Shown one piece after another: positions 47,211 through 62,471 of a stretch of 64,000 nt of DNA. How positions within the stretch are numbered: position 1 is the stretch's first letter; each line of letters begins with the position of its first letter. The DNA lies in contig CAWIKF010000002.1 in assembly GCA_963836755.1 (NCBI GenBank), forward strand, positions 960,001 through 1,024,000, in the 5' to 3' direction. The position numbers and the translations under genes were made by a program. Source of the DNA: an uncultured Verrucomicrobiae bacterium (GTDB lineage: Bacteria; Verrucomicrobiota; Verrucomicrobiia; Chthoniobacterales; Chthoniobacteraceae). The notes beneath the pieces are model-generated. The model saw only the letters and a program-made list of their open reading frames with translations, did not search any database and was not told where the DNA came from.

Positions 47211-47280
47211 GAGTAAAAAAAGCCGTCACACGCGGCGAACGGCGCACCGTAATGCGCAAATCCCGGGCTTGCAACGCCAC

Positions 47281-47573
47281 AAACCGGTATCCATCGTCGG
47301 AAACCCATCTCGCATCATCGGAAACCGGTCTTGCATCGTCGGAAACCGGTCTCGCATCGTCGGAAACCGGTCTCGCATCGTCGGAAACCGGTCTCGCATC
47401 GTCGGAAACCGGTCTCGCATCGTCGGAAGCCCGTCTCGCGTCATCGGAAACCGGTCTTGCATCATCGGAAACCAGTCTCGCATCGTCGGAAACCCGTCTC
47501 GCGTCATCGGAAACCGATCTCACATCGTCGGAAACCAGTCTCGCGTCATCGGAAACCGATCTCACATCGTCGG
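47281..47573. repeat. 21-bp tandem array, consensus AAACCGGTCTCGCATCGTCGG; 13 full units plus one degenerate unit
   Basis: Counted directly: units start at 47301, 47322 ... 47553; no unique spacers. Confidence 0.97.
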
Positions 47574-49765: not shown

Positions 49766-50329
49766 TTACAGCTGTAAAAAGTTCTGCAACAACTTTTTGC
49801 CGGCCAGCGTCAGGATCGATTCCGGATGAAACTGCACGCCGTGGATCGGCAGCTCGCGATGCCGCAGGCCCATGATTTCTTTCTCCGCAGTCTCGGCGGT
49901 GATCTCGAGGCACGCCGGCAACGTGTCCCGCTTGACGATGAGCGAGTGGTAACGCGTCGCTTCAAATGGATTCGGCAGCTCCGCGAAAACGCCTTCGTCG
50001 TTATGCAGGATCGGCGAGGTTTTTCCGTGCATGAGCCGCCCAGCGCGGACGACTTCGCCGCCGAAAACATCGCCGATGCATTGATGGCCGAGGCAGACGC
50101 CGAGCAGCGGTAAACTTTTTCCAAAATGCAAAATCACGTCGTTGCTGATGCCCGCTTCTTTCGGCGTGCACGGGCCCGGCGAGATGACGATCCGCTCCGG
50201 TTTCATCGCGGCGATTTCATCGAGCGTGACCTCGTCGTTCCGCTTCACCACAGGCTCCGCGCCGAGTTCGCCGAAATATTGGACGAGGTTGTAGGTGAAC
50301 GAATCGTAGTTATCGATGACGAGCAGCAT
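49766..50329 (-). CDS. trpG: Anthranilate synthase component II (glutamine amidotransferase)
   Basis: [28 protein letters not shown]. Confidence 0.93.
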
Positions 50330-50359: not shown

Positions 50360-51874
50360 TTAAACTTTTTTCGCGCGCGAAATCGCCGTCATCATCCCCA
50401 TCGCCTTGTTCACCGTTTCCTGAAATTCGCCCTCGGGCGTCGAATCGGCAACCACGCCGCCGCCCGCCTGCACAAAGGCTTTGCCGTCTTTCAGCACCAC
50501 CGTCCGCAGCGCGATGCACGAGTCGGAATTCCCATCGAATCCGAAATAGCCGACCGCGCCGGCATAGGTGCCGCGTTTACTTTTTTCAAACTGGTTGATG
50601 ATTTGCATCGCGCGCACTTTCGGCGAGCCGCTGACCGTGCCCGCGGGAAATGTGGCGCGCATCACGTCGTAGGCATTTTTGTCCGCACGCAAATCGCCGA
50701 TGACGTTCGAGACGATGTGCATGACGTGACTGTATTTTTCAATCGTCATGAAATCGGTAACGCGCACGCTGCCGAATTCCGCGATGCGGCCGACGTCGTT
50801 GCGCGCGAGATCCACGAGCATCAAATGCTCCGCGCGCTCCTTCGGATCGGCGAGCAATTCGCGCGCGTTCGCCTCGTCCTGCTCCGGCGTCGCGCCGCGC
50901 CGCCGCGTGCCTGCGATCGGGCGGATTTCGACTTTGCCATTGAGCGCGCGCACGTGGACTTCCGGCGAGCTGCCGACGAGCGCGAATCCTTTGCCAGAGC
51001 CGCTTTCAGGTTCATCGGGAAATTTGAAACAGAACATGTAAGGCGATGGATTCACGAAGCGCAGGCTGCGATACAACGTCAGCGCGTCGCCCGCATATTC
51101 CGTCTCGAAACGCTGCGACGGGACGATCTGAAAAATGTCGCCGGCGTGGATGAACTCATGCGCGTCGCGCACCATCTGCTCGTATTCCGCGCGCGTCGTA
51201 TTGGATCGCGGCGTGAGCGATTCGGGCTCGCGGTGAATGTTGATCGCAGGCAGCCGCGCGGGCTCCGCGAGTTTTTTCAAAATCGCGCGAATCGCCGCGC
51301 AAGCGTCGTCAAATGCCCGGCCGGGATCATCGCCGATCTGCGCATTCGCGAGCACGCGGAGGCGTCGCAGTTGATGATCGAAAATCAGCAGCGTGTCCGT
51401 GATGAAAAAAAACGACTCGGGCAAATTCAATTCGTCCGGCGGTGGCGCGCCGATGCTCGGCTCGAAAAAGCGAACGACATCGTATGCGAGATAGCCGACC
51501 GCGCCGCCGACGAAACGCGGCAGGTCCGGCAGGCTGACCGGCTTGAATCGCGCCATCAATTTTTGCAACTCGCTCAACGGATCGTCCGTCGATTCGAACT
51601 CGCGCACCGCGCCATTTTCCACGATGCGAATGGTGCGTCCGTTGCTTTGAAAAATGATGCGCGGATTACTGCCGACGAACGAGTAGCGCCCGCCCTGGTC
51701 GATGTGCTCGGCCGATTCCAGCAGGAACGAATGGCCGCCGCCGTCGATTTTTGAAAACGCCGAAACCGGCGTCTCGGCGTCGGCGATGAGTTCCGTGTAA
51801 ACGGGAATCAGGTTGCCGTTTTTCGCCAGCTCGCAAAATTCCGCGCGTGACGGTTTGAAAATTTCCTCGTCCAT
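50360..51874 (-). CDS. trpE: Anthranilate synthase component I
   Basis: LLES and NPSPYM (Trp feedback sites), EHLMLVDLARND, TFPAGTVSG; start set to ATG 51874. Confidence 0.95.
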   Translation of the reverse strand: MDEEIFKPSRAEFCELAKNGNLIPVYTELIADAETPVSAFSKIDGGGHSFLLESAEHIDQGGRYSFVGSNPRIIFQSNGRTIRIVENGAVREFESTDDPLSELQKLMARFKPVSLPDLPRFVGGAVGYLAYDVVRFFEPSIGAPPPDELNLPESFFFITDTLLIFDHQLRRLRVLANAQIGDDPGRAFDDACAAIRAILKKLAEPARLPAINIHREPESLTPRSNTTRAEYEQMVRDAHEFIHAGDIFQIVPSQRFETEYAGDALTLYRSLRFVNPSPYMFCFKFPDEPESGSGKGFALVGSSPEVHVRALNGKVEIRPIAGTRRRGATPEQDEANARELLADPKERAEHLMLVDLARNDVGRIAEFGSVRVTDFMTIEKYSHVMHIVSNVIGDLRADKNAYDVMRATFPAGTVSGSPKVRAMQIINQFEKSKRGTYAGAVGYFGFDGNSDSCIALRTVVLKDGKAFVQAGGGVVADSTPEGEFQETVNKAMGMMTAISRAKKV

Positions 51875-52251
51875 CAGCGGTAGGTTTTTTCCGCGTCGAA
51901 AACTTTTTCCTCGGCGATCGGCACGGGCGATCCGTCGCGATCGAGCTGCTGGAAAAAACAGCTTTCGTAGCCTGTGTGGCACGCGCCGCTGGTCTGCTCG
52001 ACCTCGAACAGAAGCGTGTCCGCATCGCAATCGACGAACCAGCGGACGAGCCGCTGCGTGTGGCCGCTCGTCTCGCCTTTGATCCAAAGTTTTTTGCGCG
52101 AGCGGCTCCAGTATGTCATCAGACCGCTTTCGCATGTTTTCGCGAGCGATTCGCGGTTCATCCACGCCATCATCAGCACGCGCCGGCTTGCGGCGTCCTG
52201 CACGATCGCGGGGATGAGGCCGTCGGCATTGGTTTTAAAATCGAGATTCAT
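51874..52251 (-). CDS. hisI: Phosphoribosyl-AMP cyclohydrolase
   Basis: [32 protein letters not shown]; stop overlaps the trpE start. Confidence 0.95.
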
Positions 52252-52261
52252 ACGTTTGTTT

Positions 52262-52306
52262 AAAAAAAGAAAAAGCCCGACGATTCATGGGATGGAATCA
52301 TCGGGC
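52262..52306 (-). terminator. Intrinsic terminator, the candidate attenuator 3:4 hairpin
   Basis: GCCCGATGATTC-CATCCCAT-GAATCGTCGGGC-TTTTTCTTTTTTT, ending 10 nt before the hisI ATG. Confidence 0.85.
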
Positions 52307-52361
52307 GAAAAAGTTCGACGCACAGCGCGGCGACCGCGGCAAAAAAGCCGCGAGCCCTTGT

Positions 52362-52388
52362 TTAAATGCGCCAGTGCGAAAAAATCAC
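52362..52388 (-). CDS. Putative attenuator leader peptide MIFSHWRI
   Basis: GTG ATT TTT TCG CAC TGG CGC ATT TAA; the His-Trp-Arg codons pair with 52319-52328. Confidence 0.6.
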   Translation of the reverse strand: MIFSHWRI

Positions 52389-52446
52389 GTGGCGTTCTGT
52401 AACGCCGCGCGCCGGCCGCGGCAAGTGGAAATTTTTCGCGCGAGCG

Positions 52447-60284: not shown

Positions 60285-62471
60285 CTAAAACGCGGGCGCG
60301 GCGGCGGGCTCGGGCGCGGGATCGACCCACTTCCCATGCTCGCGGATCAAGTCCTGGAGCCGATCGACGGCCTCCGCCTGCGGGATGTTGAATTTCACCG
60401 GCGTCTTGCCGACGTAGAGATTGATCTTCCCCGGCGCGCCGCCGACGTAGCCGAAATCGGCGTCAGCCATCTCGCCCGGCCCGTTCACGATGCAGCCCAT
60501 GATCGCGATTTTGACGCCTTTCAAATGCACCGTCGCAGCCTTGATGCGCGCCGTCGTTTCCTGGAGGTTGAAAAGCGTCCGCCCGCAGCTCGGGCAGGCG
60601 ACGTAATCGGTCTTGAAAATGCGCGAGCCGGCGGCCTGCAGGATGTTGTAGGAAAGGCGCAGCGCCTGTCCCGGCGCATCCTCGCCCTGCACCAAAATCG
60701 CGTCGCCGATGCCGTCGCAGAGGAGCGAGCCGATGTTCGTCGCGGCGGTCAGGAGCGTGGTGAGGAAATCCTGTCCGTCCCCTTTCGCGTTTGAAAACGG
60801 GAGCGCGGGCTTCCAGCCTGCTGCGTCCGGCATCCTGCCGGATGCATCTGCGGGCGCAGTCTCGACGGAGGAACCGGGCAGGGATGCCCGGTTCGGCAGG
60901 CTGGAAGCCCGCGCTCCCGGCAGAACATCTTTCAGCAAAATCGGGTGGCGCGCATCGAGCCGCGCGGCGAGCAGGCGGAAGGCGGCGATCACGGGCAGCG
61001 CGGTCGTGTCGGATACGGTGACTAAAAGCTCAGTTTCGCTTTGGTTCAGAGCGGCGAGGGCGGCTTCGTCGCGGGGATCGACTTCGCGGACATCGGCGTT
61101 TTCCACGACGATCTCGGGCTTGTAATCGCCCATTCGGTCGATTTTGTGCGCGATTTTCTCGAATTGCGCCTGCCGGATGAAGACACGGATCAGCTCCTCG
61201 CCGCCGAGCCGGACGCCGCCGCGGTCGAGCGTGGCAGTCGCGCGGCGTGTGTAGGAAAACGGGTCGTAGGAGAGGACGTCGAGCGGAACGGCTGGGTCGT
61301 TGGAAGGAACGGCGGGACCGTTGGAAGGAACGGCGGGACCGTTGGAAGGAACGGCGGGACCGTTGGAAGGAACGGTGGGACCGTTGGAAGGAACGGTGGG
61401 ACCGTTGGAAGGAACGGTGGAACCGTTGGAGGGAACGGTGGGACCGTTGGAGGGAACGGCGGGACCGTTGGAAGGAACGGTGGGACCGTTGGAAGGAACG
61501 GTGGGACCGTTCTCAACAGAGTAATTCGCCGTCTGCGCCTCGCTCGCGGACGCCGCGGGCGACATTTTCCCCTGTGACTGAAGCGCGTTGAACGGCGCGG
61601 CGAGCGCCTGCGCCACGGGAATCTCGTGGACGCTGTCTTCGGTGAGCGAAACGCGGATGGTATCGCCGATGCCGTCGCTGAGCAGTGAGCCGATGCCGAT
61701 GGCGCTTTTGATGCGGGCATCCTCGCCGTCGCCGGCCTCGGTCACGCCGAGATGGATCGGGTAATTCCAGTCCGCGCCTTCGTCATTGAGCCGGGCGACG
61801 AGCAGCCGATACGCCTCGATCATCACCTTCGGGTTGCTCGATTTCATCGAAAAAACAAAGGCGTGAAAGTCGAGGTCGCGCGCGATGCGGGCAAACTCCA
61901 GCGCGCTCTCGACCATGCCGAGCGGGGTGTCGCCGTAGCGGTTCATGATGCGGTCGCTCAGCGAGCCGTGGTTTGTGCCGATGCGCATGGCGACGCGGCG
62001 CGCCTTGCAAAGCTCGACCAGCGGCGTGAAGCGCTCGCGGATGCGGGCGAGCTCGGCGGCGTATTGCTCGTCGGTGTATTCGAGAATCTTGAACTTCTTG
62101 CTGTCGGCGTAATTGCCGGGATTGATGCGGACTTTTTCCACCCACTTCGCGGCTTCCATCGCGGCCTCGGGCTTAAAATGGATGTCGGCGACGAGCGGCA
62201 CGTCGCAGCCTTTTTCCAAAAGCCCGGCCTTGATGTGCTGGAGATTCGCGGCGTCCTTCACCGTCGGCGCGGTGATGCGGACAATCTCGCAGCCGACTTT
62301 CACGAGATCGAGCGTCTGCTGGATCGACGCCGCGGTGTCCATCGTGTCGCAGGTGATCATCGACTGGACGCGGATCGGGTTTTGCCCTCCGACGCCGACT
62401 TTGCCGACGAGCACCTCGCGCGTGGCGCGGCGCTGGTAGGTGAATGGGTTCGCGCAGTAGCTGGCGCTCAT
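60285..62471 (-). CDS. ispG: HMBPP synthase (IspG/GcpE), long form, with two in-frame repeat insertions
   Basis: VQSM, PLVADIHF, RINPGN, HLGVTEAG, GDTIRVSL, CPSCGR, MGCIVNGPGE. Confidence 0.96.
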   Translation of the reverse strand: MSASYCANPFTYQRRATREVLVGKVGVGGQNPIRVQSMITCDTMDTAASIQQTLDLVKVGCEIVRITAPTVKDAANLQHIKAGLLEKGCDVPLVADIHFKPEAAMEAAKWVEKVRINPGNYADSKKFKILEYTDEQYAAELARIRERFTPLVELCKARRVAMRIGTNHGSLSDRIMNRYGDTPLGMVESALEFARIARDLDFHAFVFSMKSSNPKVMIEAYRLLVARLNDEGADWNYPIHLGVTEAGDGEDARIKSAIGIGSLLSDGIGDTIRVSLTEDSVHEIPVAQALAAPFNALQSQGKMSPAASASEAQTANYSVENGPTVPSNGPTVPSNGPAVPSNGPTVPSNGSTVPSNGPTVPSNGPTVPSNGPAVPSNGPAVPSNGPAVPSNDPAVPLDVLSYDPFSYTRRATATLDRGGVRLGGEELIRVFIRQAQFEKIAHKIDRMGDYKPEIVVENADVREVDPRDEAALAALNQSETELLVTVSDTTALPVIAAFRLLAARLDARHPILLKDVLPGARASSLPNRASLPGSSVETAPADASGRMPDAAGWKPALPFSNAKGDGQDFLTTLLTAATNIGSLLCDGIGDAILVQGEDAPGQALRLSYNILQAAGSRIFKTDYVACPSCGRTLFNLQETTARIKAATVHLKGVKIAIMGCIVNGPGEMADADFGYVGGAPGKINLYVGKTPVKFNIPQAEAVDRLQDLIREHGKWVDPAPEPAAAPAF
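60799..60918. mobile_element. 120-bp palindromic REP/REPIN- or MITE-like element inside ispG
   Basis: Perfect 23-bp inverted repeats GGGAGCGCGGGCTTCCAGCCTGC (60799-60821, 60896-60918) enclosing two more hairpins. Confidence 0.8.
61285..61511. repeat. 21-bp tandem array GGAACGGYGGGACCGTTGGAA, about 11 units, inside ispG
   Basis: Counted directly; encodes (NGP[T/A]VPS)n. Confidence 0.97.

Follow-up and report, generated by a model that had tools for sequence, protein, structure and literature searches.

The hisI-trpE-trpG operon of an uncultured Verrucomicrobiae bacterium (family Chthoniobacteraceae) is preceded by a short leader that is probably a ribosome-mediated attenuator sensing both charged tRNA-Trp and charged tRNA-His. 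Attenuation by Trp is very likely, and His is quite likely to be a second working signal; judged from its leader, the operon is most likely turned on when either amino acid is short. Such a dual reading had been proposed from the locus itself, and comparison with relatives supports it: Trp is encoded in 112 of 112 distinct leaders and His in 111, and the His codon appears to be constrained at the protein level. Our analysis computed sequence features, conservation, codon-level constraint and the predicted alternative folds of the leader RNA.

Results and Discussion

Architecture of the leader

The window, by which we mean the whole 64,000-nucleotide stretch of DNA that was analyzed, carries the operon on its minus strand, each gene scoring over its NCBIfam cut-off: hisI (phosphoribosyl-AMP cyclohydrolase, 51874..52251, NF000768, the single match in the genome), trpE (anthranilate synthase component I, 50360..51874, TIGR00564), the ATG of which overlaps the hisI stop codon by one base, and a trpG/pabA-type glutamine amidotransferase gene (49766..50329, TIGR00566). 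Upstream of hisI, on the same strand, a predicted sigma70-type promoter (52396..52424) has its -35 box at 52424-52419 and, after 17 nt, its -10 box at 52401-52396. The GTG at 52388 follows 7 nt later and opens an ORF of 8 codons (52362..52388, the TAA ending at 52362), in which codons 5-7 are His (52376-52374), Trp (52373-52371) and Arg. All of these elements lie where the original prediction had placed them. A strict consensus promoter scan returned no promoter at the leader because the -10 box lacks its last T. A 20-codon ORF from a TTG at 52424, which had been offered as an alternative, was dropped, since that TTG is part of the -35 box itself and its frame is not kept, the distance to the GTG varying between 35 and 38 nt in relatives (17-nt spacer).

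In the fold of the free RNA, positions 52378-52368 pair with 52328-52319 across one bulge, extended by 52356-52354 with 52331-52329, to give an anti-antiterminator (1:2) helix (52319..52378) that encloses hairpin A; both had been predicted. Hairpin A (52334..52353) is constitutive in that it occurs in both states, and is variable in sequence and length. The 5' strand of the antiterminator, GGGC (52354..52357), lies directly 3' of the stop codon and pairs with GCCC at 52306-52303, and hairpin B (52315..52333, with 52333-52331 pairing with 52317-52315 and 52329-52327 with 52321-52319) forms the second arm of the resulting three-way junction. The intrinsic terminator (52262..52306) is also present as described, with a 12-bp stem (52306-52275) and a U-tract (52274-52262) that ends 10 nt before the hisI ATG. 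Those 10 A-rich bases (52261-52252) are all that separates the U-tract from the start codon, and they contain no SD-like sequence. The leader region as a whole folds with a z-score of -3.84 and is more stable than all 200 shuffles.

Alternative folds and the predicted switch

A stalled ribosome was modeled as a run of unpaired bases that ends 12 nt from the A-site, with the RNA truncated after the 5' arm of the terminator. Under a stall at the His or the Trp codon, the window leader folds into a three-way junction in which GGGC (52357-52354) pairs with GCCC (52306-52303) around hairpins A and B, with a probability of 0.99. The antiterminator originally put forward, CGUCG pairing with CGAUG, reaches only 0.007 under the same stalls; at -16.8 against -25.8 kcal/mol for the alternative, it was rejected. 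Footprints of 8-18 nt for the His stall and of 8-16 nt for the Trp stall give the GGGC-GCCC antiterminator in the window leader.

Across the distinct leaders, the antiterminator has a probability above 0.5 in 103 of 111 with the ribosome stalled at the first His and in 107 of 112 at the first Trp, compared with 16 of 112 at codon 2 and 11 of 112 in the free RNA; the 1 of 112 obtained at the stop codon is built into the constraint. The antiterminator forms when the ribosome is stalled at any codon from 3 to 7, all of which lie in the sensitive region, and folding therefore does not set His apart. Covariation, which had been suggested as a check on the stems, is seen in hairpin A, where both partners have changed in 4 of 4 pairs, but not in the antiterminator helix, which it cannot test because this helix of only 4-5 bp is nearly invariant (97.6% of cells paired among 33 sequences, with no change on both sides).

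When full-length RNA was folded, the terminator won at equilibrium in all eight leaders and at every stall tested, and in wider full-length folding one leader alone (L146) kept the antiterminator under a stall. The switch must consequently be kinetic, with the antiterminator forming first, and we regard the 1:2 helix or hairpin A as a candidate RNA polymerase pause that would synchronize transcription with translation.

Proposed mechanism

We infer the start site, the translation of the leader, the timing and the response to starvation as follows. Transcription would start at or next to the GTG, and the leader ORF would be translated as a leaderless message. When neither amino acid is limiting, the ribosome would reach the stop codon and cover the GGGC behind it, and after its release the 1:2 helix would hold the GGGC strand; the 5' arm of the terminator would thereby be left free, the 12-bp hairpin would form and transcription would end before hisI. 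A ribosome stalled at the His or Trp codon would instead melt the 1:2 helix and leave GGGC exposed, to pair with the emerging GCCC and close the three-way junction with hairpins A and B, so that RNA polymerase would read on into hisI. According to the available text of an earlier study (PMC1183508), a single His codon predicts a shallow response. Moreover, inducing hisI alone may add little His flux, since the remaining his genes lie at scattered sites, and a search upstream of them gave no leader of this kind.

The leaderless start is suggested by several observations. The distance from the -10 box to the start codon is 6-9 nt in 101 of 102 leaders, a result that is partly circular because the picking rule allowed 4-10 nt, and SD-like text is found in 2 of 102 leaders, the promoter having been part of the picking rule. 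Throughout the window genome, 51 of 106 gene starts that follow promoter-like motifs do so at 6-11 nt, a peak which suggests that leaderless mRNAs may be common in the lineage; we found no study of leaderless mRNAs in this lineage in the open literature. The region upstream of trpC (C1:82740) was noted beside this peak.

Distribution of the leader

hisI was found in 58 of 61 genomes. From 33 leaders we built a covariance model that has a match in 113 of the 149 genomes of the family, which named records identify as Chthoniobacteraceae; this count includes the genomes used for building, and the best match lies directly before hisI in 112 of the 113, the remaining one being weak (E 0.006) and located elsewhere. 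None of seven weak matches (E > 0.001, including six second matches) lies before hisI. No match was obtained in 36 genomes, among them most of genus g16, all of genus g22 and incomplete assemblies, and by our picking rules some hisI-trpE loci lack a leader (e.g. L021, L031, L041, L042, L045 and L049). Outside the family, the model gave a strong match in family f3 and a weak one in family f5; three other weak matches are unrelated. Members of the family are soil and freshwater Verrucomicrobia, and one carrier, Chthoniobacter flavus Ellin428 (L280), is cultured and named.

A pattern scan of 185,579 species genomes in which His was not required returned 85 stretches. Among the 80 matches listed, 58 lie before hisI, all with Verrucomicrobiota-type labels and mostly from Chthoniobacteraceae; the other 22 listed, which lack hisI, are presumably chance.

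Some leaders depart from the common arrangement. In seven, trpE was unseen within ~900 nt of the leader, and several of these have a gene inserted after hisI. In genus g23 a small gene stands between hisI and trpE behind an intact leader (L140, L141, L173 and L190), and this gene presumably resembles a four-helix-bundle family. Three leaders of genus g16 (L145-L147) have diverged, with a longer ORF and an altered terminator upstream of hisI; in L146 and L147 Cys codons surround Trp, Cys codons being conserved among the relatives of L146, and Tyr takes the place of His in L146. Among 30 hisI loci from another class of the phylum, L074 (genome G108, 808-951; also L292) alone has a terminator before hisI-trpE. 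There a promoter-like site accompanies an ORF of 17 codons, a single His and a single Trp among them; this leader is a singleton, and its folding did not reveal a clean switch.

Codon content

The working set comprises 112 distinct leaders, 111 from the family and 1 from family f3. One further leader that has His and Trp (L189) was left out, as its start could not be placed by the rule; L141 was picked anew, and ten leaders that the rule had missed were entered by position. The mini-ORF is thus conserved upstream of hisI, as the original prediction had anticipated; it has 7-12 codons and starts with GTG in 80 leaders and ATG in 32. The next most widespread residue, Leu, is encoded in 67 of the 112. 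His accounts for 176 of 956 leader codons (18%), whereas its share in the long ORFs of this genome is 2.4%. A His-Trp-Trp consensus emerges for the family, and the codon after it specifies His (55), Arg (24) or Gln (12). One Trp has been lost in the window leader, as in 20 of the 112 overall, and its His-Trp-Arg is accordingly a reduced form of this consensus and not, as had been supposed, a version of Trp-Trp-Arg with His substituted.

His stands immediately 5' of the Trp pair in 107 of 112 leaders, encoded by CAT or CAC and never replaced by CAA or CAG. In four of the five exceptions Trp is immediately followed by His, which is only suggestive given that His occupies that place in 58 of the 112. 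Leader L146 is the single one without His. Among the listed matches of the genome scan, which was blind to His, His precedes Trp-Trp in 56 of the 58 linked to hisI. A metagenome scan gave 115 stretches, 80 of them listed, and 63 of these had hisI or a terminator (57 distinct); among the matches listed, His lies directly before Trp-Trp in 53 of the 57 distinct leaders, and by the terminator rule it lies at most 3 codons away in 55 of 55 distinct leaders, 50 of which are new.

Is the His codon kept for the peptide or for RNA pairing?

The His codon sits inside the 1:2 helix, and pairing could therefore explain its retention. It could accordingly be argued that the leader is a Trp-only attenuator for trpEG with hisI as a passenger, the His codon being kept by RNA pairing, by a peptide context that helps stalling or by inertia. 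Two of the three operon genes are indeed trp genes, no other his gene has such a leader, L146 does without His, and the hisI-trpE adjacency exists without a leader in the other class of the phylum, where trpE follows hisI in 21 of 30 loci, a U-tract precedes hisI in 1 of 30, and a coding gene that, by its motif, we take to be hisF usually lies directly upstream.

The pattern of substitution argues against this explanation. Changes were counted by parsimony on a tree of hisI, one short gene, with 105 tips and 7 short rows left out. The third base of the His codon changed 14 times, always between T and C, whereas, on the same tree, 50 of the 102 changes at third bases of the four flanking codons are transversions (Fisher p 2.5e-4, a rough value as it derives from parsimony counts). 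These figures should be interpreted with some caution, since the partner of the His third base is G in 60 of 105, and pairing with G also permits only T or C; moreover, related genomes are not independent. The partner bases of the His codon themselves change 18-19 times. Opposite its middle A stands a base other than U in 39 of 102 leaders, and the A is kept nonetheless; at the third base, 31 of 105 show a mispair (7 leaders lack the partner motif). The His codon thus changes only synonymously, also where its RNA partner no longer pairs, which supports protein-level constraint that pairing would not explain.

Comparison with other lineages points the same way. In sister family f5, His and Trp are both present in 8 of 8 leaders (L538-L545) in spite of a different downstream RNA. 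In family f11 an ORF with His and Trp occurs at 2 of 2 hisI-trpE loci and at 0 of 7 hisI-like loci without trpE. As a control we used Bacteroidota in which trpE has no adjacent hisI, where a Trp-Trp ORF is found in 17 of 24 loci: His precedes the Trp run in 0 of these 17, occurs somewhere in 5 and within the span of codons considered in 4, and makes up 6 of 267 codons. His after the Trp run is weak evidence, because these Trp-only leaders have it too. Neither Chloroflexota (29 new loci) nor Sphingomonadales (30 loci) yielded convincing Trp leaders, so these groups were unusable as controls. Finally, any His codon retained in the sensitive region, for whatever reason, would stall the ribosome under His starvation. 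Taken with the retention of His where pairing fails, we hold a Trp-only attenuator to be unlikely, and favor dual sensing of His and Trp.

Considerably less probable is that the leader ORF is translated and control is non-classical, by a small-molecule nascent-peptide stall, by general translation speed or by factor-dependent termination. The leaders of f5 have a different conserved hairpin, a weak or missing intrinsic terminator and no clean switch in folding, and control in that family may be translational or factor-dependent; there is also a precedent in the ilvB leader of Streptomyces coelicolor, where, in the sections of PMC1262725 available to us, mutated candidate regulatory codons had no effect. 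In the main family, however, every component of a classical attenuator is conserved, and in a peptide that otherwise varies freely only His and Trp are kept, the end products of the downstream genes. That the hairpin merely terminates the upstream MBL-fold gene, with the short ORF a product of chance, is scarcely credible as a general explanation, although in the window that gene, on the same strand, has its end 25 nt upstream of the predicted promoter and the strict scan finds no promoter, because among the 71 leaders with enough flank (41 being too short) an MBL gene lies upstream in 1, the flanks fall into 39 unrelated groups, and ORF and terminator stay with hisI.

Relation to known attenuators

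The leader shares with trpL-type attenuators an upstream ORF with cognate codons, an intrinsic terminator before the first gene, an antiterminator that in silico depends on the position of the ribosome, and a 1:2 helix over the regulatory codons. As in multivalent attenuators, a second codon type lies within the stall-sensitive region under apparent protein-level constraint. Multivalent leaders, in which any shortage opens the operon, are represented by thrL (Thr and Ile), ilvGMEDA (Leu, Val and Ile) and ilvBN (Leu and Val), and like the hisI leader they carry more than one kind of regulatory codon. Their amino acids belong to one branched pathway, whereas the hisI operon is a mosaic of the His and Trp pathways, which are separate and share only PRPP.

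The leaders trpL (RF00513, Trp_leader) and hisL (RF00514, His_leader) of E. coli and Salmonella are alike in having a short ORF with cognate codons, mutually exclusive 1:2, antiterminator and terminator folds, and an intrinsic terminator before the first gene, the mechanism being that treated in the available parts of PMC1183508 and PMC9413887. By comparison, the hisI leader carries codons for two unrelated amino acids, with one to three His codons and no run, is predicted to be leaderless, and has an antiterminator in the form of a three-way junction closed by 4-5 bp. It also has no Rfam match at the gathering score; RF00513 and RF00514 are not among five weak matches at E up to 10, and no curated Rfam model of a T-box or metabolite riboswitch matched. 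A weak match to Rfam anti-hemB (26.7 bits against a cut-off of 49.5) was set aside as a terminator look-alike.

The available text of PMC4007540 describes leaderless leader peptides in Deinococcus deserti, including that of trpEGD, in which, as here, the ORF starts at the 5' end of the transcript, and that of PMC1262725 describes actinobacterial trp attenuators in which short conserved G/C words are common to antiterminator and terminator, again as in the hisI leader. As far as these texts go, both kinds of leader respond to a single amino acid and come from other phyla, with no hisI-trpE operon. Thus the trpL/hisL mechanism, leaderless leaders and multivalent leaders are known, and what would be new is the combination of two separate pathways in one leader. 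The original prediction had named no described example, and in the open literature, subscription surveys lying outside our scope, we likewise found neither an attenuator for His and Trp nor any attenuator from Verrucomicrobia; none appears in the accessible portions of PMC4007540, PMC4833913, PMC9413887, PMC1183508, PMC1262725 and PMC2965389.

Evolution and significance

On the simplest reading, we infer, the junction between hisI and trpE is old, and the leader with its two types of codon was acquired when these genes came to head their own operon in Chthoniobacterales. More tentatively, and with no better than nearly even confidence, we suggest that one leaderless ORF of 7-12 codons serves as an OR gate for two separate pathways, and that leaders with His and Trp arose repeatedly wherever hisI-trpE-trpG became a separate operon, as in Chthoniobacterales, where there are two RNA designs or more, and perhaps also in one genome of another class. 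If so, codon content would follow operon content, and HisI would be an unrecognized control point of His synthesis in these bacteria.

If dual sensing is true, two separate pathways are joined in one tiny ORF, and the leader is a compact, natural sensor with two inputs, from a phylum in which the open literature gave us no description of an attenuator. With more than 160 natural variants it offers a case for studying the minimum number of regulatory codons needed, and the route by which a leader acquires a second input on operon rearrangement. The cultured C. flavus strain makes direct testing possible.

Genome context

The remaining his and trp genes are dispersed over the window genome; no leader similar to that of hisI was found before them, and no repressor of the TrpR or HisR family scored over cut-off in this genome. 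A strict genome-wide scan for leaderless leader-plus-terminator units returned the hisI unit alone; loose rules gave 17 units, among which, judged by eye, none besides that of hisI has an evident cognate-codon leader.

A clear hisE is absent from the window genome, which is 96% complete; the PRA-PH family gave two weak matches in one 289-aa frame (C1:345161-345727), presumably a MazG-type protein. A second chorismate-binding enzyme, probably PabB, is encoded elsewhere (C1:1079-1840), and the trpG of the operon may serve both this enzyme and that encoded by trpE. Tandem 21-nt repeats occur twice in the window, at 47226-47507 in a region without a clear gene, and at about 61250-61480 as an in-frame insertion in a gene (60285-62471) that we take to be ispG-like.
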